Origin: Candidatus Heimdallarchaeota archaeon
GTDB taxonomy: Archaea; Asgardarchaeota; Heimdallarchaeia; JABLTI01
Reading direction: 5' to 3'
DNA: 16,160 nucleotides
NCBI GenBank assembly: GCA_019058275.1
Contig: JAHLVW010000040.1
Location: forward strand, 1 to 16,160
In this document: positions 1-16,160 of the stretch, in pieces
Layout: every line of letters starts with the position of its first letter
How positions within the stretch are numbered: the first letter of the stretch is position 1
Notes under the pieces: generated by a model
Told to the model about the DNA's origin: nothing
Seen by the model: the letters and a program-made list of their open reading frames with translations, nothing else
The model's database searches: none
Made by a program: the position numbers and the translations under genes

Positions 1-107
1 GAGAAGAACAATGATGTTTCTTTATTTATGTCCGCAATTGATTTCACTTCAACAGGAGAGAATTCGTATAGTATTTTGCTTAGCAATTCAGTTTGTTTAT
101 CATTCAA
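1..107 (-). CDS. Partial hypothetical protein running off the left edge (not in ORF track)
   Basis: TTG at 107-105 overlaps the TGA stop (102-100) of the 74-aa ORF. The frame is open to position 1: (M)NDKQTELLSKILYEFSPVEVKSIADINKETSLFF. The overlap suggests translational coupling. Confidence 0.45.
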   Translation of the reverse strand, partial: MNDKQTELLSKILYEFSPVEVKSIADINKETSLFF

Positions 108-324
108 CCCAAGATAATTTAGCATTTGGTTGCTTAAAAAGGCATTTCAGTGCTCGAGTGTCTTTCAGCCAGTTGAGCTTTCTTAGAATGGCTTGTAACT
201 GTGCTGGAACTACTTTTCTTTGTCTTTGTGCCCAGAGTAAAAAATCTTCAATCGACAAATAGTTGTTTTTTTCTTTACTTGGTGGCTTCTGCACTTGGGT
301 CATCTTCATCCACTCTAAGATCAA
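100..324 (-). CDS. Small basic hypothetical protein
   Basis: TTGA start/stop overlap with the 325-aa ORF. Alternative ATG starts (e.g. 303) lie just after GAGTGG. No recognisable family. Confidence 0.55.
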   Translation of the reverse strand: MILEWMKMTQVQKPPSKEKNNYLSIEDFLLWAQRQRKVVPAQLQAILRKLNWLKDTRALKCLFKQPNAKLSWVE

Positions 325-1298
325 GTTGATCCTTGTTTCTGAGACCTTTCGAACTCATGTAATGAAACCACTTCTCTTCGCCAACATTCAAGAATACAGA
401 GCAAAGTAATTTCACTCAATGGTAGTGGTTGTATTTCCGATTTCACAACCATTTTGAGAATCCTTTCTAATTGTCCAACAAAATAATTCGCATACTCATC
501 TTTTACTTGGGATTGTTTTTCTCCTTGGAGAAGATAACTCGTACCAGTATAGGTTTTTGTATAAGCAATTTCAGTCATTTTCCCAATTAAAACTCTCAAT
601 AGCTCTGATGACTTTAAACTAACTGTTCTTTGTTGCTTTTCGAGAAATTCTAGTACTAATCGCACCAATTTCTCTGCTTGTTGACAAGAAATTCCCAACG
701 CCAGTTCTAAGTTTTCATTATCTTTTGGCAACAATTTAAGCATAAGATATTCTTCGACTTGTTTGTAGGTTATTGCTTGTGGATGATGCTCTCCACAATC
801 AAAAAGTGTTTCCTTATTTGCTGTGAGATATTTCCCATCCCACTGAAGAGTTTGGATGAAAACCAACGAATTATTCTCTATCAATTGATTTTTCTTCAAA
901 AAATCTTGTGCTGAACAATAATGACTAGCGTCTTCAAAAAGGCAGAGAGTAAGTATTTTCCCATGGATGTCTCGCAGCTGCAGTTTTAGATACTTCTTTC
1001 TGTTCCTTGCAATAGAATCTGCTGCTGCTACTAAGAATCCCAAGAAATCGAAGAGTAATCCTCTGGTTGTCGCTTGATCTTTGTAGTCTTGTAACTTGTC
1101 AAACGAAAGTAGGAGTCCAATGTCTTCTTGTCGAGAAATAAACGAGTCATCTTCTGTTATATTTTGAACCTTTATAGAAGATGTTAGGAAAGAAGCTTTT
1201 ACGAATATTGATTCTCCTCCCTTTTGCTGTTCATTATCCATTACTTTCATCAACTCACTAGTATCGATCACAATCGATAATTTCTTCTCACTATCCAC
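321..1298 (-). CDS. OB-fold protein, RPA70/Rfa1 DBD-B-like ssDNA-binding domain plus helical C-terminus
   Basis: Long ORF with GTG start. The segment LLFDFLGFLV...YLKLQLRDIHGKILTLCLFEDA...LVFIQTLQWDGKYLT...HPQAITYK follows the RPA OB pattern (hDhhGhh...hxLxDxSG..hxhxLW/F..A...hhhh......GxxL.....PEA). CDS confidence is high; function is moderate. Confidence 0.65.
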   Translation of the reverse strand: MDSEKKLSIVIDTSELMKVMDNEQQKGGESIFVKASFLTSSIKVQNITEDDSFISRQEDIGLLLSFDKLQDYKDQATTRGLLFDFLGFLVAAADSIARNRKKYLKLQLRDIHGKILTLCLFEDASHYCSAQDFLKKNQLIENNSLVFIQTLQWDGKYLTANKETLFDCGEHHPQAITYKQVEEYLMLKLLPKDNENLELALGISCQQAEKLVRLVLEFLEKQQRTVSLKSSELLRVLIGKMTEIAYTKTYTGTSYLLQGEKQSQVKDEYANYFVGQLERILKMVVKSEIQPLPLSEITLLCILECWRREVVSLHEFERSQKQGST

Positions 1299-1603
1299 TT
1301 GATTCGTTTTCTTTAAAAAGAGCTAAAGTTAGCTATACGTTCAAGTTTCTGATGATTTATTGCTTTGTTCTTTTTCCTTCTAAGTATCCCGAAGAATTTC
1401 TTACACTTGTTTTAGTTACTTCATAAATTATATAAGGAAAAATAAGGAGTTAGCATGGGGATTCGAGCAACTTGAGGGGAAAAAACCATTACAGGAAAAA
1501 GGAAAAAATAAATTATTTTCCCCTGGAGATAGATTTTTCTTGTGCATAATTTCTAGATCAAGTTGTACAAATATCCCAAGACTATCTTAAGGAAATTCAA
1601 ATT

Positions 1604-1684
1604 TATACCTGGGGATGCTCCCATAATTTTCATCCCCTATTAAACCACAACGGGATTTTATTCTGAAGGGAGCTTCCAGGCATA
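1604..1684. other. Long imperfect GC-rich hairpin in an AT-rich intergenic region
   Basis: CCTGGGG(1608-14)/TTCCAGG(1674-80), GCTCCC(1617-22)/GGGAGC(1668-73), ATCCC(1632-36)/GGGAT(1652-56). Confidence 0.5.
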
Positions 1685-1843
1685 TATTCTTCTAGCCTTT
1701 TGTTTGTTATTAATCTTGAGCTCTAAAATCTAAAGAGAGTTTTTTTCTTTTTCCTCTTTTATCCTTTGTTTTGTCTTTTTATTATCTATAATGAGAAGAA
1801 TAATTGGTAATATTAATATAAAATATAAAGGGCCACTTATTCT

Positions 1844-2158
1844 TCAATCATCTAATCTTAATTGAATCAATAAAGGTACTAAAGCTAACCAAAATTCAAA
1901 AAAGCATATAACAATAATACTTACCCATTTATTTATTGATTGTCTTTGTCCCCATTTAAGAAAGGCAATCAATTTTTCCGTCATTTTTTTATAACTATCT
2001 GGAATATTATCTGATTTGTTTTCAGTTAGGATTTGATAGGAAGAAGTGTGTGTTTTCAAAATCTGTTTTTTGTTCTTTTTTATATTTTGCTCAATATTCC
2101 TTGATAAATCAGTCCATATTCTTTTGACTTTCTGTGCCTTTATAAAGAAATGAAAAAT
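1844..2158 (-). pseudogene. Possible remnant of a small membrane-protein gene
   Basis: The frame is open from 2158, beyond the TTG called at 2059, and has no ATG start at its 5' end. It has a hydrophobic C-terminal segment (WVSIIVICFFEFWLALVPLLI). The region is very AT-rich. Confidence 0.3.
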
Positions 2159-2499
2159 CTATTTTATTAAAAGTATCGGTTAACACTGGAAACTAAAGGA
2201 ATATATTTACCGCTTATATTCTCATAATTATCTATTAACAATCGAAATTATTGTAAAGATATGGAATGTATATATTGTTTATCAAAGAAAATTCATTATT
2301 AAAAGGCATATTATTACAAATTTTGTTTTCTCTTACAAAATTCCTTATAGTAGTCATTATAAGTTCTAGATCGTATTATCATTTAAAAGCAATTTATCTG
2401 TAACCTACATTAAGTTTATAAAATTATAAAATAAATAAGAAGCTGCTTAATTGGTGTAGATATATATGGGATGAGACACAAGCAATTTTTACATTCAAT

Positions 2500-3261
2500 T
2501 TGGAGGATATGTTTGGAGCCCAATTTGATGTAATTAACAACTTAATTTCATATATTCCTGAGATTACTAAGAATCTTGGTTTTTTAGACAAGGTTAAGAA
2601 GGACTATACAATAGAAAATTTAAGTATTCGTAAAAGACAATTTAGGAGTACTCAACGCTTATTTAGAGCTGTTTTAAAAGGTTTTCCATTAATCCATATT
2701 GATGCAGGTATAAATGGTTCTTTACAAATTGCCACAACAGAGATTAATTTGTTAATTGGTAATTTTGCAGAAAGGCTTGCATTTATGGATGAAGATGAGG
2801 ATGGAGATGAAGACGAAGAAATCAATGTTCCTCCCAAAAAATTATCCAAAGAAGGATTAAATAGAAAGGCAATTCAATTTATTAAGGACATTCAAAATCA
2901 ACTTTCATTACTTATAACATATTTAGCTGGTTTGGCTAATGTTGATCCGATTATTAGCTATAAGATTGATATTAGGTTCCCATTAAAACTACTCATAGAT
3001 GAAAAGGCAACCAAAATTTTCTCAGATATTAATCAAACATTAATGTCCAAATTTGAAAATTATAAATTTATAAAAGCAAATCTGTTGCGATTTGAATGTA
3101 TTTCAGATGATTTAGAACACACATTTATGATTGATAACAAATCTAAAGTTATATCTTATAAAGCTGAACTTGAAAGCAATATGAGTAATTTTGATATCTT
3201 AGAGGGAATTAAAAACAGTTATAAAATCACAAAAGAAATGTTAGCTAATTTAATGAAATGA
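2500..3261 (+). CDS. Hypothetical protein, first gene of a three-gene HEPN cassette, with acidic loop DEDEDGDEDEE
   Basis: 253-aa ORF; the frame is open from 2422, so the true start is uncertain. It lies 11 bp before the next gene. Confidence 0.75.
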   Translation: MEDMFGAQFDVINNLISYIPEITKNLGFLDKVKKDYTIENLSIRKRQFRSTQRLFRAVLKGFPLIHIDAGINGSLQIATTEINLLIGNFAERLAFMDEDEDGDEDEEINVPPKKLSKEGLNRKAIQFIKDIQNQLSLLITYLAGLANVDPIISYKIDIRFPLKLLIDEKATKIFSDINQTLMSKFENYKFIKANLLRFECISDDLEHTFMIDNKSKVISYKAELESNMSNFDILEGIKNSYKITKEMLANLMK

Positions 3262-3272
3262 GGAAATAGGAA

Positions 3273-3863
3273 ATGTATAGAGGATTATCTGAAAAAAATA
3301 TTCATTTAATTATCGATGCAATTAGAAACTCTGAGGATCCTAAAGCATTAAGTGAAATTGTATTTGGTACACATGAAAAAAATTCTATACTTGATGCAAT
3401 GAATATAGAACCACGATTTATTGGTAGTGATGAGATAAGTGTAAGAGAAACAACACGTATATTTCGTAAAGGTATCCAAAAAGAGCATGAATCTGAAATA
3501 GTGCGATTGTTAAAGGAATTGCTTAAAGAAATAAAAATTCAATCAGAAGGTTTTAAACGAATGCAACACATTCAGCAAGATCGAATTAGTTATTCAGCAG
3601 TTATTGATTTACAGAAATATATTCAAGAGACAATTGATGATTATCCCTCTATACTTGAAGTATTTGTTGAGGAAATATTTCCAGGTCGTTTGTTAATTTA
3701 TCTTATTATACCAAATGATTTATCATATAAACTACATAAGCCAATTGCTAGATATCAAAGTATTTTATTCAAACCTTTTAAGGAAATTATAGATGATTTT
3801 AGAGTTGTTCAGCAAATTAATCGAGATACAATTATAAAAAGAAATCTAATGAAAATAGTTTAA
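3273..3863 (+). CDS. Hypothetical protein; C-terminus resembles a degenerate minimal nucleotidyltransferase (MNT) fold, putative antitoxin
   Basis: ATG with AGGA upstream. C-terminal helix followed by YPSILEVFVEE...LLIYLIIP...helix...DFRVV matches MNT topology but lacks GS/DxD. It lies directly upstream of the HEPN gene. Confidence 0.55.
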   Translation: MYRGLSEKNIHLIIDAIRNSEDPKALSEIVFGTHEKNSILDAMNIEPRFIGSDEISVRETTRIFRKGIQKEHESEIVRLLKELLKEIKIQSEGFKRMQHIQQDRISYSAVIDLQKYIQETIDDYPSILEVFVEEIFPGRLLIYLIIPNDLSYKLHKPIARYQSILFKPFKEIIDDFRVVQQINRDTIIKRNLMKIV

Positions 3864-3864
3864 A

Positions 3865-4242
3865 TTGGTGAATTTCAATATGGTTGAATTAGATGAACAC
3901 TTAAAAGCTGTTGTTCATAACAAAGATTTCTTAGACTATGTTGAAGATAAAATGCCACCATTTGAGGATTGGGGTGTAACAGTACTCTTTTATATTGCTC
4001 TTCATTGTCTCCAAGCGTATTTTGCTAAAGAAAAAAAACATCCTCCAACTCATCATAATATTTGAATTCTGTTAGATGAAGACTTATCAATTACTCAAGA
4101 AATAAAAGATGATTATTTTACTTTGAAAGATTTAAGTGAGATAGCTAGATATACACATTCCTTAATGGATAAAGAAGAGTTTAATGAAATGAAGGAAGAT
4201 TGTACAAGAATTGTTACATACTTTCAAGAAAGAATTTGCTAA
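3865..4242 (+). pseudogene. HEPN-domain RNase toxin interrupted by an in-frame TGA at 4063-4065
   Basis: Reading through the stop gives ...HNKDF...DWGVTVLFYIALHCLQAYFAKEKKHPPTHHNI*ILLDEDLSITQEIKDDYFTLKDLSEIARYTHSLMDKEEFNEMKEDCTRIVTYFQERIC, ending at TAA 4240-42. This is a full HEPN-sized protein with the typical FYxAhH, TH and ARY motifs. Confidence 0.75.
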
Positions 4243-4249
4243 TAGTAAC

Positions 4250-4258
4250 TTTTTTTTT
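4250..4258 (+). terminator. Oligo-dT archaeal-type terminator
   Basis: T9 tract starting 8 nt after the TAA at 4242. This supports 4242 rather than 4065 as the original gene end. Confidence 0.5.
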
Positions 4259-4367
4259 GCTTAATTCATTATTTGTTGTTAACCCCTACAGAAGTTAACT
4301 GTTAATTCATTGTTAATAGGTAAAATATTTGATGTAAAAAGACATTCAAAATATTATTTTATTCGGA

Positions 4368-6194
4368 TTAATTTCTTTCAAAGAAGAATTCCCCGCTTTC
4401 TCTTTGCTCTCGATCCAATCGACTTCCTCCTTTGTTAATCCTCGCTCTACCTGTTTCCACATCACGTCTAAAAGTAATATCGAGTGTTTTCAAGAATTCA
4501 TTCATTCCTTCTCGTTTTCCAACTGGTCCTACTGTGAATCCTCTTACTCCTGGTTCACCCAAGAATAACATGACACGATCACCAAGAATATCTGCTAATT
4601 GCATATCATGTTCTATAGCTATTACTGAAGCATTGTAGAGTTTAGCAGCATTTCGAATAATCCTAGCAACCTTAATTCGCTCTTCTACATCAAGAAAAGC
4701 TGCAGGTTCATCTATAAGATAAAGCTCAGCTCTTTTTGATAAGCAAGCAGCAACAAAAACCCTTTGAAGCTCTCCTCCACTGAGAGTTGAGATTGGTTTA
4801 TCAAAGAGATGTTCAATACCCAAAGGTTGGTAGAAGGTCTGTTTTAGTATTTGTTCACCTGTATATCTTCCAGAATAATTAGTTATGAACTCATTTACTG
4901 TTCCCTCATAATCTCGAGTAATGAATTGAGGTTTGTAGGAAACACTAGCCATAACATCAGCTGAACCACGATTAGGTTTTAGAACACCTGCAAGCATTTT
5001 AACAAAAGTAGATTTTCCTGTTCCATTTTCACCAATTATCACCAATGTTTCTCCCTTATGCACTTGGCCTGGTGAAACCTTTAATCGAAATTTGTCAAAG
5101 CTTTTCCATAATGTAGTGAACTTAACATAAACTGGAACAGTGTCCCATTTACGTTCCCTTACGACGCGTAAGAAAGAAATAGCTTTACTTCGGAATGTGA
5201 TGTTTTCTTCCTTCAAGAAACCAGTCAAATAAGCATTAATACCTCCCTTTACGCCTTTAACCCCAGAAACAACACCAAAAGCATGTGGTGTTCCCCATAA
5301 AGCTTGAATTTGATCACTAAGATAATCAAGAATGGCTATATCATGCTCTACTACTAGAACAGACTTGTTTTCTGCAGCTAGTTTATGAAAGAGCTTTGCT
5401 AATTTTAATCGCTGTTTAACATCTAGAAAATTACCAGGTTCATCAATAAGATAAACATCAGCCTTCTTCAGTAATGCTAATGCAATAGCAAATCTTTGCC
5501 TTTCTCCACCAGATAGTTGAGTGAATTGTTTTTCTAAAATATTTCCTAATTGTAATTCCTTTGTTAAGGTGCGCTTTTTTCCTAGCTCATCATTGTTCTC
5601 CAAAATCTCATCTATTGTTTCTTTTTCTTCTAAGAACTTTGTTAAAACTTGTTCTTTGTAGGAAATCTTCACTCTCTTTTGCATTAATAATCTGAAATAT
5701 GCCTTATGAACAGAAAGATCAATATGCGAAAGAACATATTTCAAATCCAAATCTTTGCGTAAGTATTCTCCACCATTTGGTACAAATTTACCTGCAAGAA
5801 TATCCATTACTGTAGTTTTTCCTATACCATTAGCACCAATCAATCCTGAAACCTTACCCTTAGCCATAAAGGGTAAATCATATAGACGAAATGAATTTTC
5901 ATCAAATTGATGTATGGGTTGATCTTTTAGCTCTACGGGTAAACCAACCATTGCAATTGCATGTGTTGGACATTTATTAACGCAAATACCACAAGCGATA
6001 CATTTCTTACTGTTAATTCGAGCTTTCTTAGTTACTTTATCCGGATAAACAACTTTCGTTTTTTTATTAAGTGGGCATATCTTAATGCACGCATATCCAC
6101 AAGTTGCTGGTTGACAACGATCTAAATTAACAATAGGTATCCTTGTCTTTGTTTTTCTTTTGCTTAGAGCATCATCGGACATGTATAAAACCAA
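4368..6194 (-). CDS. rli1: ABCE1/Rli1 ribosome recycling ATPase (likely start ATG at 6182)
   Basis: N-terminal eight-Cys 2x[4Fe-4S] domain (CQPATCGYACIKICP...CIACGICVNKCP). Two ABC domains: GANGIGKT/LSGGE/YLIDEP/VEHD and GENGTGKS/LSGGE/YLIDEP/IEHD. C-terminal hinge TFRRD..TGRARINK.GS.LDREQ. Confidence 0.97.
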   Translation of the reverse strand: MVLYMSDDALSKRKTKTRIPIVNLDRCQPATCGYACIKICPLNKKTKVVYPDKVTKKARINSKKCIACGICVNKCPTHAIAMVGLPVELKDQPIHQFDENSFRLYDLPFMAKGKVSGLIGANGIGKTTVMDILAGKFVPNGGEYLRKDLDLKYVLSHIDLSVHKAYFRLLMQKRVKISYKEQVLTKFLEEKETIDEILENNDELGKKRTLTKELQLGNILEKQFTQLSGGERQRFAIALALLKKADVYLIDEPGNFLDVKQRLKLAKLFHKLAAENKSVLVVEHDIAILDYLSDQIQALWGTPHAFGVVSGVKGVKGGINAYLTGFLKEENITFRSKAISFLRVVRERKWDTVPVYVKFTTLWKSFDKFRLKVSPGQVHKGETLVIIGENGTGKSTFVKMLAGVLKPNRGSADVMASVSYKPQFITRDYEGTVNEFITNYSGRYTGEQILKQTFYQPLGIEHLFDKPISTLSGGELQRVFVAACLSKRAELYLIDEPAAFLDVEERIKVARIIRNAAKLYNASVIAIEHDMQLADILGDRVMLFLGEPGVRGFTVGPVGKREGMNEFLKTLDITFRRDVETGRARINKGGSRLDREQRESGEFFFERN

Positions 6195-6304: not shown

Positions 6305-6772
6305 ATGTCATTCTCATTAAGACTAGCAACCAAAGAGGATATCCCTCAATTAATTGAACTTCGAATAGAATTCTTGAAAGAAGTTCAAGAAGATGTCTCA
6401 AATGATAGTATGAATGTTTATCGAGAACATTTAGGTGGATACTTACAAAAACATATGAAAAATGAAACTTTTCTAGCTTGGTTAGCTGAAGATGAAAATA
6501 AAACTATCATTGCTACAAGTGGATTAGCAATTATAGAAAAACCACCTCATCTTAGCAACCTAACAGGCAAAGAGAGCTATATCATGGATATGTATACAAA
6601 ACCTGAATGGCGTAGACAAGGAATTGGTTCTGCAATTTTAGAGAAATTGCTTGAAGAGTCTAAAAATAGAGATATATTCTATATGTATCTATATGCTACA
6701 CCAATTGGGAGTGCATTATATGAAAAATATGGATTTAAGCAAAGTGAACATTCAATGTATCTTCGGTTGTAA
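6305..6772 (+). CDS. GNAT family N-acetyltransferase
   Basis: LRLATKED start, acetyl-CoA motif MYTKPEWRRQGIGS, and C-terminal LYEKYGF. Confidence 0.92.
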   Translation: MSFSLRLATKEDIPQLIELRIEFLKEVQEDVSNDSMNVYREHLGGYLQKHMKNETFLAWLAEDENKTIIATSGLAIIEKPPHLSNLTGKESYIMDMYTKPEWRRQGIGSAILEKLLEESKNRDIFYMYLYATPIGSALYEKYGFKQSEHSMYLRL

Positions 6773-6790: not shown

Positions 6791-7363
6791 TCATTCCTTG
6801 GGAAACCAAGGAATAAACATTGATACTCTTCTTTTATAATCAGCATAGTCAGGTCTTTTTGCTAATTGCTTTTTCTCGATTAATGGAATGCTGATGAATA
6901 AAAACAGTATAACCATTACTATTGGTCCAGCTATTGTCCACCACCAACTTGGATCTGCTGCAAGTGCAAAGAATAATAGCCCCCACCAAAAGCTGACTTC
7001 AGCAAAATAATTAGGATGACGACAGGCTGCCCAAAGACCTACATCCATAACTTTCTTGGAATCACCACTTACTTTACTAAATATCTTCATCTGTTCATCA
7101 GCAATGAACTCGTACCAAACTGCTCCAATGGTTATAATCATAGCAATTGAATCTAACCAGTTAATTGATGCTGAGCTTAAAACCATTGCAGGATATAATG
7201 CTACACATCCTAAATAGACAATTAATGTGGGCATCATTTCTAAACCAGTAAATGCAATTAACCAGAATGTCTTTGGATTATCTTCGCGGTATTTAACATA
7301 ACGCCAATCTTCATGATGTAAACCTTTCCAACCTCTAACCCAGTTAAGAGTTAACCTTACACC
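6791..7363 (-). pseudogene. DUF1295 / steroid 5-alpha-reductase-like membrane protein, 5' truncated by an insertion
   Basis: The frame continues upstream of the called ATG (7237) as GVRLTLNWVRGWKGLHHEDWRY to 7363. The C-terminus has GLWAACRHPNYFAEVSFWWG and YADYKRRVSMFIPW. The expected W of WGxRL and the whole N-terminal part are replaced by element sequence. Confidence 0.88.
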
Positions 7364-7520
7364 GTTCCTTTTTTTATGGACAAATAGGACATAGCACTAT
7401 TTAACCATTCCCAGTCACCGCTACAAGCAAGTTGTCGCAGTTCATCTCTGAGCCCCCACCAGGAACAGTTAGGTGAAGGATTCCCGAGTCCATGTAGGGC
7501 ACGGGGCTGGTGTCTTTAAG
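7342..7520 (-). ncRNA. TnpB omegaRNA (reRNA) scaffold plus flank-derived guide; 5' end approximate
   Basis: Overlaps the tnpB 3' end. Hairpin CCUUCACC/GGUGGGGG (7479-7453) has a loop containing ACUGUUCCU, which pairs with terminal AGGAACGGU (7369-7361) as a pseudoknot. A second hairpin spans 7440-7418. The G-U wobbles work on the minus strand. Confidence 0.75.
7362..7395 (-). mobile_element. IS607-type right end
   Basis: The minus strand reads ...ATGTCCTATTTGTCCATAAAAAAAGGAAC-GG|TGTAAGG. It ends in a GG shared with the target, carries short direct repeats (TGTCCTATT/TGTCCATAA), and coincides exactly with the DUF1295 break point just downstream of tnpB. Confidence 0.75.
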
Positions 7521-9032
7521 ACTTTTAATTTCTTTATAATCTATGAAGCTTGCTCGATAGATGTTTATTGCAGCGATGTAATCACGGTCTGCGGTGAAGC
7601 CACATTGGGGGCAGTGGAACCAGCGAGCTCTTTTATTTTCAATCAGGTTGTTTGGTCCGAGAACTTTCACTCCTTTAGCAGTGCAGCGAGGGCAGTGTGA
7701 TGAGGTATTCCACGGGCAGACCTTTTGCAAGGTAAGCCCTTGCTCTTTGCACTTGTATTCTAAGAGAAAAGCTATTCTTCCTCTAAGCCATTGCGAGAGC
7801 CGGCGAGACCAGCTTCTCCTTCCACGAGGAGGTTTGTAATCTCTGAGGTCTTCTATGACTATTTTCGTGCAGTTCCAGTCGAGAGCAATTTGGATGAGGA
7901 TGTTTGTTGTTGTGTGTGCTAGTTCTTCTCCTAAGCGGTTCCGTTTTTCATAGAGCCTTCTTCGCTCTTCTTGGTATGCTTCCACACCAATTTGCTTGCT
8001 CTCCCTTCTTTTCTTTTGACTTGCGATTTGATGTTGGTTTCCTGCGATATGATCGTAGATTCTTTCGATGTGCCTGTACTGTGAACCCACCAATTTGATA
8101 GTTATCGGTTTTGATATCTGCTTGCCATCCTCGAAAATCGCCATTGTCGCTACTTTTTTCAATCCTTTGTCGATTGCTAACACACGCTCCTTGCTATCGT
8201 TCCTTTTGGGTTGGTTTTTGAACTCCCACGGGAATAGGAGGAAAAAGCATTCCAACCCCCCTTTAAGTTTCTTTTTGTGCAAGGTCGGTTTGAGTGGTTG
8301 GCTGGATATAGCCCCAGCAACTTTCTCTTGTATTTTTTCCGGGATGGCTATTTCGTTTGTTACCCACTCCCAATCGTTTGTGCTTTTTGGCTCTGGTGTT
8401 GTTGGGAGTTTCAGTTCATATTGGATCTTCTCTCCGTCAGCAAAGTATCTTATTGCTTGGTTGTCGTCTGGGGAGTAGGGGAACGCGAAGTGTTGTATTT
8501 TTGGCTTCACAAAATCAGTGTACTTGAAGAACGTGATGCTGATGTCTAATGCTTCATGCAAGTTTTTGATCATTTTAATTGTTTGATCTATCAAGACTTT
8601 CTTATGAAGTGGAAAGCTCTTGCCATTCTTCCCTTCTTTTCTGTATTGCTTCATGATTGCAGTAAGGAGTGTGCTATCCTTTGTTTCGAACCCAAATCGA
8701 ATCATTATTTCCAGGCAATCATAATAGCAGTTCTTGCGCTTGTATTGCCCCCTGATGATCCTTCCTGCCCATTCTGCAGTTCCTCGTCTGATTCGTGATG
8801 GAAGGTAGATTTTCTGCCTGTTCAGCTCTAGTTCTACTTGTGCTTCATTTATGACTTTGTAGGCTTTGAGGTTGCTTTTCCCTAACTGATTTATCCACTC
8901 TTCGCTCCAGAGTTTATCTAGCAATTGCTGAGCTGCTTTTGTTGTGAGTGCTTGGAACCACTGCAGACGCTCATCTCTTGGAAGCTTGAATTGGTAGCTT
9001 TTGGTGGGGATGTTTTTTTTCTTTCGGGGCAT
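7401..9032 (-). CDS. tnpB: TnpB-family RNA-guided endonuclease (large, 543 aa)
   Basis: RuvC-I VLAIDKG, RuvC-II IVIEDL, PWNTSSHCPRC...CPQC zinc ribbon, and RuvC-III DRDYIAAINI. All three catalytic acidic residues are present. The gene is visibly more GC-rich than its neighbours. Confidence 0.93.
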   Translation of the reverse strand: MPRKKKNIPTKSYQFKLPRDERLQWFQALTTKAAQQLLDKLWSEEWINQLGKSNLKAYKVINEAQVELELNRQKIYLPSRIRRGTAEWAGRIIRGQYKRKNCYYDCLEIMIRFGFETKDSTLLTAIMKQYRKEGKNGKSFPLHKKVLIDQTIKMIKNLHEALDISITFFKYTDFVKPKIQHFAFPYSPDDNQAIRYFADGEKIQYELKLPTTPEPKSTNDWEWVTNEIAIPEKIQEKVAGAISSQPLKPTLHKKKLKGGLECFFLLFPWEFKNQPKRNDSKERVLAIDKGLKKVATMAIFEDGKQISKPITIKLVGSQYRHIERIYDHIAGNQHQIASQKKRRESKQIGVEAYQEERRRLYEKRNRLGEELAHTTTNILIQIALDWNCTKIVIEDLRDYKPPRGRRSWSRRLSQWLRGRIAFLLEYKCKEQGLTLQKVCPWNTSSHCPRCTAKGVKVLGPNNLIENKRARWFHCPQCGFTADRDYIAAINIYRASFIDYKEIKSLKDTSPVPYMDSGILHLTVPGGGSEMNCDNLLVAVTGNG

Positions 9033-9046
9033 TTTCGTTCAGTAAA

Positions 9047-9084
9047 ATATATATTAAGCTAGATATATAGCATTTCTTTAAAGA
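9047..9084 (-). promoter_or_regulatory. Putative archaeal promoter of tnpB (short or absent leader)
   Basis: The minus strand has AAAGAAATGC followed by TATATAT about 30-37 nt upstream of the ATG. No SD sequence is present. Confidence 0.35.
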
Positions 9085-9201
9085 GCATGCCGAAAGTATT
9101 CGAAGTTTACTTAAAAGAATAATTAATCAATTAATAATTTGTACAGCTTTTCTAAGAGGTATTTAAGAAGTCAAGAACTAACAAATTATTAGGAGGAATT
9201 A

Positions 9202-10824
9202 ATGATCACTATACGTCTCCACTGGTCAAAGGATCCTTTGCTAATTGATCCCGAACCATTTGAACAAAACAATTGGTTAACTGCTAATGATTTGTTTGAA
9301 AATGACCACAGAGACAAAATCTTCAATTCTATTGATCAATTCCAACTTTATTCGATTGTAGTTCGTAAAATTGATTTCATTACCGGAGAGCGATTATTAC
9401 AATCTTTCCCCTATATTCTCTTGAATGATATGAGGATAAAAAATCTGCGAAAGAACACTTTGTCACTTGCAGAGCGAACCTACTATTATTTCGAAGGAAC
9501 TAAAGCTGATCATTCTATTTGCTTCTGGCAGAAAAAGATCAATAATTATTTGGAAGAGCAAAAGCGTTTGCCTTTTCCCCTCTTTAGACTATATCCTGAT
9601 TGGTTAGAAATTTATGAAGGTAATCAATTTCTCTCTTTCCAATCTGCACGGGGGGAGGGTTTTCAATTACCTCTCTATCTTACTGATGAGTTAACCTATC
9701 TTTCTGGTGTTATTATGGGTGATGGTCATCTTGCCAATTATTTTATCAATATTATTGATTCATCAAAAGAGCATATAGTAAGTCTCACAAAGATATTAGA
9801 AGAGATGTTTCACTCAAAAACAGAATTCTTCAAACAATCCAATGCAGAAGCTTGGAATGTCAACATACTTGGTAAATGGATCGTGAGGTTTTTCAATTTC
9901 CTCACAGGACAACCAATCAATAAGCGAAAATATCCTTCACTACGAGAACCCTTAATTTTCCAAAATAATGAGCTCTTTCGTAGGAAGTTTTGGCAGGGAG
10001 TGATGGACGCAGATGGTAGTTACAAAACAAATATCAGTTTTACTTCTGCATCTCAAAATTTATTTTTTGACTTTACAAATTTCTTAGAACAGAACAAATT
10101 AGACTTTAAAGTATATACTAATAGACTATATGGTGCTAAAACATATTCATTAAATCTTGATGGATTATCACGTAAGATATTTTCTACATTAATTGGTACA
10201 AATCATCCCCAAAAAAAGCAAGAGTTAGAGCAATTATTGAAAAGAAAAATCTATCCTTTTTCTCCTAGAGCATACACATTGATGAAACAGGGAACATGGG
10301 TAGGGAGAGTAGAGAGCTTTCAAGAAGAAAGTTTCATCGAAGGTTTCTTTGACTTTACTAAAGTCCCTTACTTTTGTGTTTCAAATTTAGGTCTCTTTCT
10401 AAAAGAATTACGTAGTAATCTGACTCAAAGAGAATTTGCTGAAAAGCTTTCAATAAACCATGGAAAGTTATCACAATATGAACGAAATGTTATAGCAGTT
10501 CCCACATCAATTCTGAAGGAAATCTTTCTTCAAACAAATCATTCAATTCCGAACTTTTTAAGAAATAATCCTAAATTAGCAATACAAGCTAGAAAGTCTA
10601 AATGTTTATTAGATACAAAACCAACTCCATACCTTTTAGAATTATTACAAGGAATACAAGTGAAAGAGAAAAAATATTTACAATTTATTGGTAGAAATAA
10701 CCAAATATTTGAAGAATATAAGGAAGAATTTTGTATCTATTTCTCAATTGATATACCTCAAAAAAGATTCTTCCGCAATGCTGTTCTCTATGCTTTTATT
10801 AAAGAGTTCTGTATGCTCAAATGA
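9202..10824 (+). CDS. Free-standing double-motif LAGLIDADG endonuclease-like protein with XRE-type HTH
   Basis: AGGAGG at 9191-96. Motif 1 LTYLSGVIMGDGHL and motif 2 FWQGVMDADGSY. HTH LKELRSNLTQREFAEKLSINHGKLSQYERN. No intein splicing termini. Confidence 0.85.
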   Translation: MITIRLHWSKDPLLIDPEPFEQNNWLTANDLFENDHRDKIFNSIDQFQLYSIVVRKIDFITGERLLQSFPYILLNDMRIKNLRKNTLSLAERTYYYFEGTKADHSICFWQKKINNYLEEQKRLPFPLFRLYPDWLEIYEGNQFLSFQSARGEGFQLPLYLTDELTYLSGVIMGDGHLANYFINIIDSSKEHIVSLTKILEEMFHSKTEFFKQSNAEAWNVNILGKWIVRFFNFLTGQPINKRKYPSLREPLIFQNNELFRRKFWQGVMDADGSYKTNISFTSASQNLFFDFTNFLEQNKLDFKVYTNRLYGAKTYSLNLDGLSRKIFSTLIGTNHPQKKQELEQLLKRKIYPFSPRAYTLMKQGTWVGRVESFQEESFIEGFFDFTKVPYFCVSNLGLFLKELRSNLTQREFAEKLSINHGKLSQYERNVIAVPTSILKEIFLQTNHSIPNFLRNNPKLAIQARKSKCLLDTKPTPYLLELLQGIQVKEKKYLQFIGRNNQIFEEYKEEFCIYFSIDIPQKRFFRNAVLYAFIKEFCMLK

Positions 10825-10844
10825 GTAGTGTTGAAAATAGACTG

Positions 10845-10940
10845 TTCTCGCAATGTCTTTGCTAGTCGCAGATTCGCGGTCACTACAAGCCCACTTACAG
10901 TGGTCTTGCTTAACGTTCTATCGCGGGAAACTATTGAGAA
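10845..10940 (+). ncRNA. Candidate structured RNA (four nested stems), family unknown
   Basis: GC-rich island in an AT-rich spacer. Stems: 10845-54/10933-40, 10858-62/10868-72, 10873-80/10920-27, 10886-95/10899-908. Confidence 0.4.
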
Positions 10941-11015
10941 GTAAGTATTTTTTCTAATAAAAAAGCAGATATTGAAGATTAGATAAATCAGAAAGGAACG
11001 TCTTTTTTTCTGGCG

Positions 11016-11127
11016 TTTATATAGTCTATATATTTTTGTCGGTGTTTTTTTAGTTCTTTATAAATAAAATTCCAGGAAGTAATAGTAGAAGTAAAAATTG
11101 AGTTAATTATGTGCTTTTTCTTGGAGA
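11016..11127 (+). promoter_or_regulatory. Putative promoter/operator region of the cas1-fusion operon
   Basis: TTTATATA (11016-23) and TTTATAAA (11057-64) TATA-like boxes, perfect palindrome TATATAG-T-CTATATA (11018-32), and GGAGA (11123-27) before the ATG. Confidence 0.4.
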
Positions 11128-11133
11128 GATTCC

Positions 11134-14100
11134 ATGAGTTCCACCGTTTATCCTAAAAAACGATTGCCAATCAGTGTATCGCTAGGTATCACCACGCAAT
11201 TATCTGGTTCTGAGACATTTTTTGATGATAGATTTGCATCTCTCTCGGAAGAGGAACTGAAAACGATATTATTCAATAGTGGTTCTCTTGCGTTTATTTG
11301 CAAAGACCAAAAGAGACAAAAATCGAAGCTCAGTGAGTTCCTAATCTTCCTAACTATCAGACGTGCTCTAGCACTAAAGAGCCATACAAAAAAACCTGTG
11401 ATGGTCGTTGTTTATTCTTGGCAAATTGGCAAGCAAGTTGCTACCGAGCTTGCAAGGCATACCACTGATTACAAACTCTACAATATGATCAGTAAAATAA
11501 AGGATAAAATCAACAAAGATTTGAAAGTAAAACTTCATACGCAAGCGGATTTCATCCTCTTAACCTACCACCAACTCCGAGACATTGTTTTTGATGTCAA
11601 GTGTCCAAAAGTCGAGCAGATTATCTTTGTTAACCCCCTTACAAAATACAACAGCCATCGTGAGGTTATTGCTTTAGATGACATTACTGCGGTTTTACAC
11701 AAGCACAAACGAAGAAAGGTGCAATTCACCTACGTATTTGATGCCAATTACTTTCCTGTCATGCAGAAAAAGGATTACCAATATCTCCTTGATGTTGATG
11801 ATTGCCTGTTCTTTGGTTGCAATGAAAAGCCTGTGAGCCTTTACAACAACATACTAAGCTCTGTTTTAGAGTACCTTGCAGATGAGCATATACAGTTTTT
11901 CATCTGGCGAGAGCTATACCGAAAAAGAGGACTATTTTCTGGATTAGTTCAGCAGTTCAAGAAGTCATTAACCTATAAATTGCATGTATTAAGTAATGGT
12001 CTTTACCCAAAGGACCTTGCAGACCAAGGAGAGACTGCTTTTATCAAATATGGTTTAAGAGAAAAAGCTGATATTGATAAAGAGATCAAAGGTAAAATAG
12101 GCAAAACCCTTCAACTTTTCACGAAAAAAACCACAAAAACGATCATAGGAGAGAAACAAGTTGATTTTGAACATCAGAAGATAACATATTCCTGGGAAGA
12201 ACCGATTGAAACACCGCCATTTTTGCCTTTAGTTGAAAAAAAGAGAGAAAATCATTACTATTACCTTACAGAATTAGGAGAGACAGTATTTACTTCTGCA
12301 TCGCATCATGCAGGCGCGAAAATAAGGTTTTCAACCTTTTTGCATGAGACATCAAACAGGCTTTTTAGAAAGAAAAAATCTCCCGCGAAGTTCACTCTTG
12401 AAGAGATCATAAACTTGTATAGAGTGCTTATTGGCATTGATCCCGAAGAGTTGCCAGATACAATCAAAGACTGTATAGCTGTTGATGCTGATCAAACAGA
12501 CCAAGAATTAGCTTACACCTTCGATAGCTTCATTGAACGAGAATTTGGCTTCATAATAAAGGACTACTCAAACCATGCAGCGAAAACGTTGCTAAACTCA
12601 TTTGAAGAATTTATGGATGAAAATGCGTTATTTTTTTTCAACAGACTAAAAAACTACAAGGAGAAAAAGAAACGAGCAAGAAAAGAAGACCTTCCAGAAG
12701 CAATCCTCAAGACAGTGAAATATAAACCGCTGCTGATCGGGAAAGTCAGCCAAAAACTCAATTTAGATTATAACCTGATAAGCAGAGAGCTGAAAAAGCT
12801 AGAAACTCAAGAACTTGTTGTTGCCATTAAAACAATGATTAATGACGGTAGCACCCGTTTGAAATATTGCCAACCAGAGGTGCTGAAGCAATACCCTTAT
12901 CTCAAGAAGGAGTGCGGCATTTGTACGCTTTACAAAAAACGATTTAATAGCTGCCCTTTTCTTAAACTTATAGACATTTACAATCCAACTCAGTTCCCCA
13001 CAGGCTTTCGTGAGTATGTGTGCAATGCTGTCAGAGAAACTGCTACACCATGTAAATACCTCGATGAACATTTGGATTTGGAAATTGAGGGAGAACAAGT
13101 CAGATATACTATAACCATAGAAGCACTTGCACAAAAGATGAGAATAGTTGAGGGGTCATTTCTTTTGGGACAAGAAGGGGTAAAATATTCCTGTGTAAAT
13201 TGCCAAACAGTGATCGAGGAATTTGGCACAGGAGAGGAGCTCTTTTTCCCACGGAGACGAATTCTATGCCCAAATTGCGCGACAGGATACTACCGAAAAG
13301 ATGAGCAGACTGTTCTGATTCAGACAGAGCACAGAGACGTTCTTCGTGGAAAATATTTTGAGCTCACAGGCTCGATACCAAAGATCCTGAAAGAAGGGGA
13401 ACCATCGTATGCTTATGTCATCTATGACAATGAAGAAGCAGATCTACTTATGAATAAGGAAAATTCAATGGTGCTTGAAATATGCAAACATAAAGTTCCC
13501 CTTAAGAAAGTCCAGTACATCTACTTTGCAGGGAAAGAACATCAGAGGCTCGAGAGATTCCTAACACATCTCTCAAACATTAGACCTGAAAGGTTTAATT
13601 ATTCAATTAATCGCTCTCCACAAAAAGAGGAAGAGGAACTAGCGCTAAGGGAGGGTTGTGAACCGTTCACTTCTGAACAGTACCATAAAGTCCATGAATT
13701 AATTGCTTTCATTTCCGAAGAAGAACTGTTAAACAATCCCTTTCTGAGAGGAAGGCACCTATCGAATATTGGTGCTTTGTTGAAATATCGACGAGAAGCT
13801 TCTGAGAAGAATGAATACCTAACCAGTATTAATAGGCAATTGTATGAAATGGTCGATCTCTTGCTCATCGTTCAAGCAGGTGTGAAGTCTAGCTACTATG
13901 GTCGACAGCTCGAAGGGCAAAGCCAAAATTGCCTCTATGATTTGTTGAAAGAAGAGGGAGAAAAAATGGGTCTCTGGACACATGGACGAGTGATCTCAAG
14001 GTTAGTAAAAGACTTGTTCTTATCTTCTACAGTAAAAGTTAGCAATGCTCGCGCTCCTCTAGATGCACTCCTCAACCAGGTGCTACGACAATTTCGGTCT

Positions 14101-15237
14101 ATAATCAACAAGGTGTTTAGAAAGATCGGATTAAATCCCTACTCGCTAGGAGCGGGATTGATACATAAGAGAAAAACAAAATCGGACATCGACCAGAAAG
14201 GACTCTACTTTGACTTCATTGAACCTGTAGGCTCTCTAGCTTTGATCACATTGCTTAGAGCTATAACAGAAGGCTTGTTCTCTGATGATGACTGTTCTCT
14301 CGAACTGGCAGGCAGCGGTCAGCTGATTTACCGTGTAAAACAATCATCCCTCGAGAAGATTGAGGAAATGGTTGAGAAAGCATTAGCCGAGCTTGTGTAT
14401 TATAGAGGAGAGAAGATAACTTTTCTAGCAGCTTTTGAGGAGAATCTATTATCCTTCAAACAAGCAATGCAACTCTGTTTTGACAAATGTGCTGATGGCA
14501 AGGAGCTATCTTCTAAAATTATCAGTCAAAGTTTGAAGATAGTTGGCTTCATTCCCTTTGTTTACTGCCCCGTAGGTTGTGAAGAAGAACTAGACATAAT
14601 CAATAAATTTGCTGTTAAGTATTCATCCTTCTTTGAGGAGCGCGAGGAGCAAGTGTTAGAAGCAAGGGAAAAGCGGACGGTCTTTAGAATAGTAGCAAAG
14701 AAAAAATGGTGGCAAAGTAATGGGGAACGCGGAAAGAAGAAGCTACAATTAACAAAATACCAAGCAAGAGAACAGGAGCGAAGTTTGTTGGTAGCCTTAG
14801 TTTTACTTTATCTTGATTTTCAAATGCATGGCTTAGATAATTATTATTCAACAAGGGAACTCCGAGGAATGCTTCACTTAACTCAGAACCAAGCTCAAAG
14901 GATCCTAACTAAAATGGTTGCTCAAGGGCTATTGCAGAAAATGAGATACAAAAAACAAAGCTTCTACCAGTTTAATTTTGATAATAGAACGGTTCAAGAG
15001 CTGCTCTTCACTTTAGAACAAATTCCTTGTGAGGATAAGAAGATGCGGCTGAAATTTCTGAGAAATTCAGGCAATGTTATTGAAAGGATGAATTCTCTCT
15101 TGTTAAAAGTTCAGCAAATCAAAGAAGGGCTGTCTGTAAATGTTGGCTGGAAAAGCTGGAAATTGCCTCAAGGCATTGAACAAATCATCGAGCTGTATGG
15201 CGAAAAAACAGGATTATGTTTAAAAGCCGAGGGATAA
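11134..15237 (+). CDS. cas1: Giant multidomain Cas1 homologue (Asgard aCas1-like): degenerate Hel308/Ski2-like module, wHTH, two Cys clusters, Cas1, wHTH
   Basis: Cas1 N-lobe-like AYVIY...KVPLKKVQYIYFAG from about aa 760. Catalytic lobe: RQLEG (E927), ARAPLDALLN, GLNPY..GLIH (H1011), GLYFDFIEP (D1027/E1030), followed by DDC...YRV...VYYRGEKITF. C-terminal wHTH YSTRELRGMLHLTQNQAQRILTKMVAQGLL. Confidence 0.82.
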   Translation: MSSTVYPKKRLPISVSLGITTQLSGSETFFDDRFASLSEEELKTILFNSGSLAFICKDQKRQKSKLSEFLIFLTIRRALALKSHTKKPVMVVVYSWQIGKQVATELARHTTDYKLYNMISKIKDKINKDLKVKLHTQADFILLTYHQLRDIVFDVKCPKVEQIIFVNPLTKYNSHREVIALDDITAVLHKHKRRKVQFTYVFDANYFPVMQKKDYQYLLDVDDCLFFGCNEKPVSLYNNILSSVLEYLADEHIQFFIWRELYRKRGLFSGLVQQFKKSLTYKLHVLSNGLYPKDLADQGETAFIKYGLREKADIDKEIKGKIGKTLQLFTKKTTKTIIGEKQVDFEHQKITYSWEEPIETPPFLPLVEKKRENHYYYLTELGETVFTSASHHAGAKIRFSTFLHETSNRLFRKKKSPAKFTLEEIINLYRVLIGIDPEELPDTIKDCIAVDADQTDQELAYTFDSFIEREFGFIIKDYSNHAAKTLLNSFEEFMDENALFFFNRLKNYKEKKKRARKEDLPEAILKTVKYKPLLIGKVSQKLNLDYNLISRELKKLETQELVVAIKTMINDGSTRLKYCQPEVLKQYPYLKKECGICTLYKKRFNSCPFLKLIDIYNPTQFPTGFREYVCNAVRETATPCKYLDEHLDLEIEGEQVRYTITIEALAQKMRIVEGSFLLGQEGVKYSCVNCQTVIEEFGTGEELFFPRRRILCPNCATGYYRKDEQTVLIQTEHRDVLRGKYFELTGSIPKILKEGEPSYAYVIYDNEEADLLMNKENSMVLEICKHKVPLKKVQYIYFAGKEHQRLERFLTHLSNIRPERFNYSINRSPQKEEEELALREGCEPFTSEQYHKVHELIAFISEEELLNNPFLRGRHLSNIGALLKYRREASEKNEYLTSINRQLYEMVDLLLIVQAGVKSSYYGRQLEGQSQNCLYDLLKEEGEKMGLWTHGRVISRLVKDLFLSSTVKVSNARAPLDALLNQVLRQFRSIINKVFRKIGLNPYSLGAGLIHKRKTKSDIDQKGLYFDFIEPVGSLALITLLRAITEGLFSDDDCSLELAGSGQLIYRVKQSSLEKIEEMVEKALAELVYYRGEKITFLAAFEENLLSFKQAMQLCFDKCADGKELSSKIISQSLKIVGFIPFVYCPVGCEEELDIINKFAVKYSSFFEEREEQVLEAREKRTVFRIVAKKKWWQSNGERGKKKLQLTKYQAREQERSLLVALVLLYLDFQMHGLDNYYSTRELRGMLHLTQNQAQRILTKMVAQGLLQKMRYKKQSFYQFNFDNRTVQELLFTLEQIPCEDKKMRLKFLRNSGNVIERMNSLLLKVQQIKEGLSVNVGWKSWKLPQGIEQIIELYGEKTGLCLKAEG

Positions 15238-15241
15238 TAAG

Positions 15242-16160
15242 ATGACCAAAAACTGGAAAGAAGAAAAAACAAACCACATTAAAGAGAAATTCCCCCTCAA
15301 ACCAACCACCAGACCTGAATGGCTAAAAATAGCTAAACTACCTGCAACAAAGCCTGTTACTTCGAGTGGTGTTTGTTGGGAAAATCTATTTCAAAAAAAG
15401 CTTGAATCATTTGCAGCTGTTCTCGAGAGAATGGTGAATAATCCTCATCCTTTTGACCACCAGAAAGAAGCAATAGAGTATTTGTTAGAGCCACAAGAGA
15501 ACAACAAAGACCTTATTATTAATGGTGGAACGTATTCCGGAAAATCGCTATCGTTTAGTGCTCCCGGGATTACCAAGCTGCTGAATGGAGAAACAGATTT
15601 CATTGTGCTGTTCTATCCATCCAAACAATTGCTAATGGATCAATTTGAGCGAATGAAGAATTTGGTCGTTGAAGTGAAGAAGGAAACAGGTGTTCGTTTA
15701 ACCACTCGAATGTACAGTGGAGATGTTGGGAGGAGTTCGGTAACGGGTAAAACCGCTCAGAAGAAGGATCTTCTTGAAACAGAAAAGTACCCACCGAACA
15801 TTCTCTTAGCCACTTTTGACAAGGTCTGGTATCAACTATTAGCCGGGAACAAAAACCCTCTACTCGAGAAAATAATGGACTGCCAATATGTTGTCTTCGA
15901 TGAAATCCACGCATTCGATGGGTTCGCTGCAGCTATAATTAGAATGTTCATCCAGGTGCACAAGTTAAGAAATCCTACTAGTCAAATTGTCCTTTCATCA
16001 GCTACGATTGATAGAGTGACAGAATTTCGGGATGACTTCTTGCCTGGAGCAAAAGTAATCACTTGTCCTCCAGTTAGGGGAGAGCAAGAGTTTCTTGGTG
16101 TATCAAGAGAGCACACTATTCCCATTCTAGTTGACTTGTGGGAAAGATTGGAAACAATAC
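15242..16160 (+). CDS. SF2 DEAH-box helicase, Hrq1/YprA/MrfA-like; partial, missed by the ORF track
   Basis: ATG 4 nt after the cas1 stop; frame open to the window edge. Motifs: Q PFDHQKEAI, I GGTYSGKS, Ia YPSKQLLMDQ, YSGD, Ib ILLATFD, II VVFDEIH, III LSSATI. Confidence 0.92.
   Translation, partial: MTKNWKEEKTNHIKEKFPLKPTTRPEWLKIAKLPATKPVTSSGVCWENLFQKKLESFAAVLERMVNNPHPFDHQKEAIEYLLEPQENNKDLIINGGTYSGKSLSFSAPGITKLLNGETDFIVLFYPSKQLLMDQFERMKNLVVEVKKETGVRLTTRMYSGDVGRSSVTGKTAQKKDLLETEKYPPNILLATFDKVWYQLLAGNKNPLLEKIMDCQYVVFDEIHAFDGFAAAIIRMFIQVHKLRNPTSQIVLSSATIDRVTEFRDDFLPGAKVITCPPVRGEQEFLGVSREHTIPILVDLWERLETI

Follow-up and report, generated by a model that had tools for sequence, protein, structure and literature searches.

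Simple IS607 elements are about 2 kb in size and encode a serine-recombinase TnpA together with TnpB. In Asgard archaea, the Asgard Cas1 (aCas1) and its linkage to TnpB were reportedly described by Makarova and colleagues in the CRISPR Journal in 2020, and to our knowledge, it is only in these aCas1-TnpB loci that a Cas1-family protein and the Cas12 ancestor are paired in nature outside CRISPR. Altae-Tran et al. (2023, PNAS; PMC10691335) found aCas1-associated TnpBs in two Asgard groups, Cas1H-Asgard-1 and Cas1H-Asgard-2, with flanking repeats, and proposed aCas1 as the transposase; the same work lists helicase and WhiA/meganuclease-like cargo for a serine-recombinase TnpB branch and reports that tnpB is followed by a hypervariable stretch with a GTTCACTCA-like motif as its boundary. 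The linkage is thus already published (PMC10691335). Here, we analyze one such element in a 16,160-bp contig of Candidatus Heimdallarchaeota archaeon (JAHLVW010000040.1), for which the exact ends, the reciprocal empty sites, miniature copies, tnpA-bearing 13-kb versions and the IS607 ancestry can be documented.

The window, as we call this whole stretch, is contig C27 of a 4.1-Mb assembly in 118 contigs (G000); C, G and L numbers denote contigs, compared genomes and compared loci (metagenomic ones included), respectively. Host genes occupy its left part, and to their right lie four genes of the element: tnpB, a LAGLIDADG-helix-turn-helix (HTH) gene, a large aCas1 fusion and the first part of a helicase gene. 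In our opinion, the best explanation for them is a single 11,425-bp non-autonomous IS607 derivative, moved by a serine recombinase in trans, restored by TnpB and carrying the aCas1-helicase genes as cargo, a reading to which we assign a probability of roughly 0.7. The copy is unusually well resolved, with base-exact ends, two reciprocal sites, miniatures, versions with and without tnpA in one genome and plain IS607 cousins.

As in the published Asgard loci, a Heimdall-group host carries a large diverged Cas1, a helicase and TnpB in a repeat-flanked, predicted transposon with no CRISPR array, an array-less linkage that we found in at least seven loci. What sets the present element apart is that its ends, target word, lack of a long duplication, tnpA stub and IS607 relatives point to a serine recombinase. 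The GTTCACTCA motif had no exact match in the window, and one-mismatch matches occurred at chance level, none of them near the right end.

The likeness to the IS607 family (e.g., IS607 of Helicobacter pylori) extends to asymmetric ends with short subterminal repeats, a G-rich core without a long duplication, and a tnpB at the right end whose guide-RNA scaffold overlaps the 3' end of the gene and stops at the boundary. In addition, the autonomous relatives have a tnpA with an N-terminal DNA-binding helix right behind the left end, and the end sequences are common to bona fide 2.1-kb tnpA-tnpB units. Unlike typical members of the family, the element is 11.4 kb instead of about 2 kb, with three cargo genes and ~9 kb between the left end and tnpB; its tnpA is reduced to 12 codons, it has two tandem left ends, and its TnpB is, at 543 aa, of unusual length and always accompanied by a LAGLIDADG-HTH gene.

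Ends of the element and empty sites

A preliminary description of this DNA had proposed that the right end interrupts a DUF1295 gene at position 7362 and that the left end lies beyond position 16160, in an element of more than 8.8 kb that includes the Cas1 system. This is what we found. The element comprises window positions 7361 to 16160 plus positions 47723 to 50347 of an abutting contig, C101 (11,425 bp in all), with a GC content of 38.6% versus about 32% in the flanks. The proposed start was essentially exact, the boundary being at base 7361, where seven tnpB 3' regions in the genome align to ...TTGTCCATAAAAAAAGGAACGGT and are divergent beyond. A right-end stretch is common, up to a sharp boundary, to 13 copies: seven full or partial ones in G000 (two of them miniatures of ~375 bp), four elsewhere (L046, L060, L064 and L066) and two plain IS607 units (L062 and L063).

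The DUF1295 frame can be read up to the junction (PF06966 positions 50 to 235 of 235 at window positions 6824 to 7366, minus strand), with codons G V R L T L N W ... restarting at position 7360 and the first ~50 profile positions missing. The fragment is collinear with an intact 317-aa gene in G004, a genome of the same genus. A genome-wide DUF1295 profile scan located the 5' half (profile positions 2 to 51) off the window contig, at C101:47562-47720. It had been predicted to end in ...TGG(GG) beside TGTCC/GGACA repeats, and it terminates with ...TTTTGGGGT (GCC TTT TGG GGT); the left end follows directly, reading CGCAACTG..., CGCAACTGTTGCCCTAAAAT and then ATGGACAAATAGGACAT, with GGACA repeats. 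The 17-mer ATGGACAAATAGGACAT has exactly two copies in the 4.1-Mb genome, at C101:47741-47757 and, inverted, at window positions 7376 to 7392, and relaxed copies are found at all other left ends. This inverted repeat is subterminal, 15 to 21 nt inside the ends, and the outermost 15 to 21 nt of the two ends are asymmetric. As already noted in the preliminary description for the 7 kb upstream of tnpB, the window contains no tnpA (Resolvase family, genome scan), no GGACA-type end motif besides the right-end copy and no DUF1295 5' half; a Resolvase-family match occurs just twice in the genome, on C11 and on C117.

C27 and C101 share ATAC, a 4-nt overlap, in frame (C27 ends with ...LWERLETI, and the reverse complement of C101 begins with IPGRACLVF), giving a helicase of 1052 aa. 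An intact ORF of this length is present in G004, in which contig C104 aligns with C101:47717-50351 (98.0% identity) and continues without a break into window positions 16160 to 13844 (99.35%). By spanning the junction of the two contigs, C104 proves the join.

Empty-site genomes had been suggested as a comparison, and G004 is one: it carries an uninterrupted 317-aa DUF1295 (98% protein identity) at the exact insertion site, and the flanks C27:4367-7363 (93.9% nucleotide identity) and C101:42960-47720 (95.3%) adjoin on a single G004 contig, overlapping by 3 nt. The empty site reads ...TTTTGGGGT GTAAGGTT... (...TTTTGGGGT GTAAGG...) and the filled site TTTTGGGGT/CGCAAC...GGAACGGT/GTAAGG, with slashes at the junctions. 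The same element is found elsewhere in G004 at 96.7 to 99.4% nucleotide identity (C286:9340-15839 corresponds to window positions 7361 to 13864 at 96.7%), and the site of that copy is in turn empty in G000, at C69 near base 29905 (...AATTCTT ACC CTCTTATT...), as well as in G007 and G010. ACC (GGT on the other strand) stands at both junctions of the filled G004 site and only once in the empty C69 site. The sister genomes G000 and G004 are therefore a reciprocal filled/empty pair.

In these two filled/empty pairs, there is no target duplication beyond the GGT shared by target and element end. Insertion targets read RGGGT, as do the left flanks of most copies. Eight other genomes of the family, including seven of the genus, have an intact DUF1295. 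All this shows that the block is a discrete insertion that moves as a unit and has changed place between sister genomes. As for its history, a transfer from the C69 site to DUF1295 and two separate insertions would be equally parsimonious.

A left end at positions 9033 to 9200, between tnpB and the LAGLIDADG-HTH gene, had been named as the finding that would speak for a smaller element. It was ruled out by the spacer (9033 to 9201), which is conserved in six copies (C27, C50, C17, C11, C52 and C88) and has no left-end motif in any of them; no copy has a left end there.

Beside the C69 site (G000:C69:~29964-31090), we also noticed a ~1.1-kb repeat with an 87% copy at C33:40485-41605. Copies exist in G002, G005 and G007 as well, but G007 has none at that position, so the repeat is probably another small mobile element.

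Conservation of the gene order

A diverged second copy, on C50, has the same four-gene order at 54 to 74% amino acid identity. Its left end reads ..AGGGT/TGAACCGTTGC...TAGACAATTATGACA, and its right end is not visible, as the contig begins inside tnpB. Six of the eight loci read (L043, L045, L046, L059, L060 and L061) show tnpB on the minus strand followed by LAGLIDADG-HTH, the large ORF and the helicase on the plus strand, L061 as far as its contig reaches (without the helicase) and L059 with extra ORFs between. The host neighbourhood differs from one of the six to the next. The ends of this copy recur at L046 and L060 (a GGGT or GGGGT flank followed by the left end, and ...GGAACGGT on the right), and a second end type (CGTTAAC...AGATAGACCAT) is found at L043, L045, L059 and L061.

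The metagenomic locus L060 deserves a comment, since LAGLIDADG and cas1 genes next to an intact DUF1295 had been foreseen as an observation unfavorable to a mobile element. L060 contains PPS, GHMP kinase, an intact DUF1295, GNAT and ABCE1 as here, and what lies behind ABCE1 is a whole element with canonical ends of its own, which supports mobility instead. The large-ORF family (E value below 1e-30) is confined to this genus among 40 relatives, with members in five of the ten other genomes of the genus, and is located 2 to 4 kb from this tnpB clade where contigs allow.

Left-end anatomy and IS607 ancestry

From the DUF1295 5' half inward, the order is a first left end (LE1), a 12-codon tnpA stub, a second left end (LE2), the helicase-MZB-phosphoesterase gene, the aCas1 fusion, LAGLIDADG-HTH, tnpB with its scaffold and the right end. 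Behind LE1 is ATGAAATTATCAGAGTGGGCACAACAAAAAGG, which matches the beginning of the serine-recombinase gene on C11 (PF00239, E = 7e-16) with 91% identity. The frame of the stub (C101:47841-47876) stops at AAAAAGGGGT, and the second, complete left end follows directly (TGTGACTGTTGCTGTTTTTT-ATGGACAATTAGGGCA). Both tnpA genes of the genome lie behind the same left-end layout, with a ..GGGT flank, ~20 nt containing CAGTTG and then TGGACAAATAGGACA.

A simple internal deletion of tnpA was considered and dropped after the complete LE2 was found right behind the 12-codon stub. Judging from the sequence, it is likely that a cargo element inserted into the tnpA of a resident IS607 and that the remainder of the resident was then lost. 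The composite now moves from LE1, since the G004 copy has the same LE1-stub-LE2 arrangement.

Plain tnpA-tnpB units of ~2.1 kb, with tnpA immediately preceding a tnpB of ~540 aa, are found in G017 and G033, which belong to a sister genus and contain the closest tnpA homologues outside the genus (50 to 53% amino acid identity). The right end of both units terminates with ..GAAAGGAAYGGT. The G017 unit has a ..GGGT left flank followed by a GACA-type motif, TAGACAGATAGAACA; no clear left end was seen in the examined G033 stretch. Because the ends are shared with tnpA relatives, miniatures and plain tnpA-tnpB units, they are those of a genuine IS607 lineage.

The two miniature copies of ~375 bp (C45:13190-13545 and C117:50578-50935) retain a left end, the right end and, of the tnpB region, the last ~150 nt with the guide-RNA part. 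Their near identity suggests recent mobilization in trans.

Two tnpA-bearing versions of ~13 kb were detected in G000 (C11:76000-89170 and C117:~24000-30935), with an unknown ORF of ~320 aa and a RadA/Rad51-like ATPase (Pfam Rad51, 1e-34) between tnpA and the Cas1-type ORFs. The C11 relative has the order left end, tnpA, unknown ORF, ATPase, split Cas1-type ORFs (604 and 537 aa), helicase, phosphoesterase, LAGLIDADG-HTH (minus) and tnpB, and runs off the contig after ~13 kb. The C17 copy has this order plus an Eco57I/MmeI-type restriction-modification methylase (C17:3077-6028) between LAGLIDADG-HTH and phosphoesterase.

TnpB and its guide RNA

Aligned to solved TnpB/Cas12f chains, the TnpB of the element keeps the RuvC-II Glu (VIEDL), the zinc-finger CxxC pairs and the RuvC-III DRD, and it looks catalytically intact. 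The scaffold at the 3' end of the gene has two stems with compensatory changes across the 13 copies. A search of the window and the C101 tail against Rfam at gathering thresholds gave no match to CRISPR or any other RNA family. We also considered that Cas1 might write the guide of TnpB, which was ruled out: behind the right end are ordinary DUF1295 codons, identical in the G004 empty site.

Compared with window positions 7401 to 9032, the TnpB of the G004 copy (C286) is only 88% identical at the protein level versus 98 to 100% for the Cas1 ORF, which hints at gene conversion among tnpB paralogues. Eight contigs (C50, C11, C19, C17, C53, C5, C78 and C73) begin or end inside tnpB or its right end. 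Because the repeat family is a major source of assembly breaks, our copy counts are lower bounds.

The aCas1 fusion and the helicase

The preliminary description had labeled the 1367-aa ORF as Cas1, and the label fared differently with sequence and with structure. No sequence profile backed it: Pfam gave nothing for the whole ORF or its thirds, NCBIfam and PADLOC nothing relevant, and phmmer and a 16-sequence profile against the Protein Data Bank (PDB) nothing; a genome-wide search with PF01867 found canonical cas1 genes only (C26 and C76), and hhalign against the genome's own canonical Cas1 returned a probability of 0.4%. When residues 800 to 1190 were modeled, on the other hand, the top 50 Foldseek PDB matches were all Cas1 or casposase (4n06_B, 1.4e-6; casposase 6opm, 3e-6; TM about 0.5), and it is this structure model that argues for the Cas1 identity of the protein. 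In the family alignment, E927, H1011 and D1027 show no variation and E1030 almost none, apparently in the order expected for E/H/D-E. A model of residues 1 to 500 weakly resembled the SF2 cores of Hel308, Pol-theta helicase and XPF (E about 2e-4). Homologues were found in 25 database clusters, Heimdallarchaeota where named, bar one partial match labeled Bathyarchaeia.

Like casposons, the element thus has a predicted Cas1-fold protein in a mobile context outside CRISPR, with casposase 6opm among the best structural matches. It differs from them in having no family-B DNA polymerase (no polymerase domain was found among the element ORFs) and no 14-to-15-bp duplication, in its subterminal inverted repeat, and in a Cas1 that is buried in a 1367-aa fusion undetectable by sequence profiles.

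Downstream of the fusion, the helicase gene continues on C101, where the last 2.2 kb code, on the minus strand, for Helicase_C, MZB and Metallophos domains, in a frame cut off by the end of the contig. Among PDB sequences, YprA (6znp) is the best match to cover both helicase lobes (E = 2.6e-8), and eIF4A has a slightly better score over a shorter region.

The arrangement had also been likened to a proto type V system. The part of this idea that stands is the physical linkage, as in type V CRISPR-Cas, of a TnpB/Cas12-lineage nuclease to a Cas1-fold protein. The rest is speculative: no tandem or spaced direct repeats that would make a CRISPR array, no cas2 or cas4 among the ORFs and no written guide were found. 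In contrast to type V systems, the nuclease is TnpB-sized, the guide would be flanking host DNA, and the Cas1 is outside the CRISPR clades, the canonical cas1 genes of the genome being elsewhere.

The LAGLIDADG-HTH protein

In this genome, tnpB genes of the element's clade are always head-to-head with a LAGLIDADG-HTH gene. Both motif aspartates (GDGHL and DADGS) are kept in 12 aligned copies, and for this reason the protein might have endonuclease activity instead of being a WhiA-like regulator. With ~20 genomic copies, many of them distant from any tnpB, the family is far commoner than tnpB or the Cas1 ORF and may be mobile by itself or part of several element types.

Mechanism of mobility

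In the mechanism that we favor, an IS607-type serine recombinase supplied in trans, here by the ~13-kb relatives on C11 and C117, would excise and integrate the element via the GGT core. TnpB, with a transcript running from the scaffold into the flank as its guide, would cut empty sites consisting of RGGGT plus flank, and recombination would then restore the element, a role that published papers have shown for other TnpB elements. The aCas1-helicase operon would be cargo, along with the RadA/Rad51-like ATPase in the tnpA-bearing relatives; conjecturally, this cargo might be a break-processing and recombination kit that helps a large element to survive TnpB-triggered repair.

We infer that the serine recombinase in trans is likely the mover and Cas1-helicase the cargo because the ends are of IS607 type: there is a GGT core only, a tnpA stub is preserved, and the end sequences are common to tnpA relatives, miniatures and plain IS607 units. 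If so, small-serine-recombinase IS607 elements can carry ~9 to 11 kb of cargo, and the recombination-type nature of this cargo (helicase-nuclease, Cas1 fold and RadA-like ATPase) is a hint that RNA-guided cutting and element-encoded repair are linked. The published idea of Cas1 as transposase may then be wrong for this group, a question testable with defined substrates.

Several observations weigh against a serine recombinase as the mover. The enzyme is absent from this copy, and none was detected in G004 (84% complete), the L046 genome or the ten other genomes of the genus, which are incomplete assemblies; five of these ten tnpA-negative genomes carry the aCas1 family. This leaves two options: a tnpA that is rare or was not assembled, or some other enzyme that is able to move the elements. 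Besides, a 3-bp GGT duplication would be indistinguishable by sequence from a conservative GGT/GG core, and the 17-nt inverted repeat near both ends is what a Cas1/casposase-type transposon would have.

That other enzyme would be aCas1 itself in the proposal of Altae-Tran et al. (2023; PMC10691335). Applied to this locus, the aCas1 fusion and the helicase-nuclease would be the transposase of a polymerase-less casposon-like element, with the serine recombinase as a passenger or second system. The predicted Cas1 fold with its conserved E927, H1011, D1027 and E1030 and the repeat just mentioned are in agreement with this, as are the presence of aCas1 in every large copy, when tnpA is found in few, and the tnpA-less elements with canonical ends in genomes with no detected Resolvase-family gene. 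The junctions, however, share at most 3 bases, compared to the 14-to-15-bp (casposon) or repeat-length duplications of Cas1-type integration, and the outermost 15 to 21 nt of the ends are asymmetric. Moreover, tnpA-tnpB units devoid of Cas1 share the right terminus and the GACA-type left motif (in G017 also the GGGT flank), the left end retains a tnpA stub, and the miniatures keep exactly the parts needed by an IS607 recombinase and TnpB. On balance, we consider aCas1 an unlikely transposase for this element, if one that has to be taken seriously.

Less likely again, in our view, is that aCas1-helicase serves as a second integration machine for the same ends, independent of the serine recombinase and moving the tnpA-less 11-kb form (as in G004 and the L046 genome). 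Were this true, the element would be a transposon driven by Cas1 that travels with TnpB and leaves hardly any target duplication, and a partnership of Cas1 with a Cas12 ancestor that predates any CRISPR array.

We give little credence to transposase-free homing, in which TnpB, the LAGLIDADG protein or both would cut empty alleles and the element would be copied by homologous recombination. The apparently intact tnpB, a right-end scaffold abutting the host sequence that would be the guide, the ~20 LAGLIDADG copies with both catalytic aspartates kept and the recombination-type cargo (helicase-nuclease here, RadA-like ATPase in relatives) would all suit such a process. Homing, however, reaches the same site only, whereas the same element occupies two unrelated sites in the sister genomes and its relatives are at many unrelated RGGGT sites with clean ends, which requires a site-specific recombinase or transposase.

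Finally, the alternative of an accidental linkage, in which a small tnpB element lost its left end beside an unrelated Cas1-helicase island, can be practically dismissed: the Cas1-helicase operon is inverted relative to LAGLIDADG-tnpB in C11 and C17, which indicates some modular reshuffling, but the whole 11.4 kb is delimited by exact filled and empty sites in two sister genomes, the four-gene order recurs with its ends at independent, unrelated sites in at least six other loci, and in no copy does a left end separate tnpB from the LAGLIDADG gene.

Features of the window and host genes

Table 1. Features annotated along the window, with positions counted from its first base
Feature	Position	Strand	Remarks
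ABCE1/RLI	4368-6194	minus	Host gene
GNAT acetyltransferase	6305-6772	plus	Host gene
DUF1295 3' fragment, insertion target	6791..7360	minus	Pfam PF06966, E = 8e-33, profile positions 95-235
Right end with guide-RNA (omegaRNA-like) scaffold, overlapping the tnpB 3' end	7361..7520	minus	Terminus ...AAAGGAACGGT at 7361
17-nt motif ATGGACAAATAGGACAT, two GGACA/TGTCC units	7376-7392		Inverted copy of the left-end motif at C101:47741-47757
tnpB, 543 aa, RNA-guided nuclease	7401-9032	minus	Pfam Cas12f1-like_TNB, 1e-19; NCBIfam guided_TnpB, 2e-26; PADLOC Cas12f, 9e-25
Spacer between the divergent tnpB and LAGLIDADG-HTH genes (presumed promoters)	9033..9201		Aligned across six copies
Double-LAGLIDADG + HTH protein, 540 aa (WhiA/meganuclease-like)	9202-10824	plus	Pfam LAGLIDADG_3, HTH_3/19/31 (weak); NCBIfam intein endonuclease regions
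aCas1 fusion, 1367 aa	11134-15237	plus	No Pfam hit; SF2-helicase-like N-terminal region, winged helix, Cys clusters, Cas1 fold, winged helix
Modeled Cas1-fold region, residues 800-1190	13531..14703	plus	AlphaFold pLDDT 83, pTM 0.81
SF2 helicase-MZB-calcineurin-type phosphoesterase (MrfA/YprA-like), first 306 of 1052 codons	15242-16160, continuing at C101:50347 down to 48108	plus	Pfam DEAD, 5e-19

The orphan DUF1295 5' fragment (G000:C101:47370-47722; L011:7019-7371) has a 1-nt deletion in a T run compared to the intact G004 gene, leading to a frameshift. The cause would be either incipient decay of the split gene or an error in sequencing a homopolymer.

Window positions 1 to 4366, to the left of ABCE1, are not collinear with G004, have a very low GC content (24 to 30%) and contain small ORFs without Pfam hits. 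In L060, a Cas1-TnpB element is found at the same ABCE1 boundary, so that the 3' flank of ABCE1 looks like a variable hotspot.

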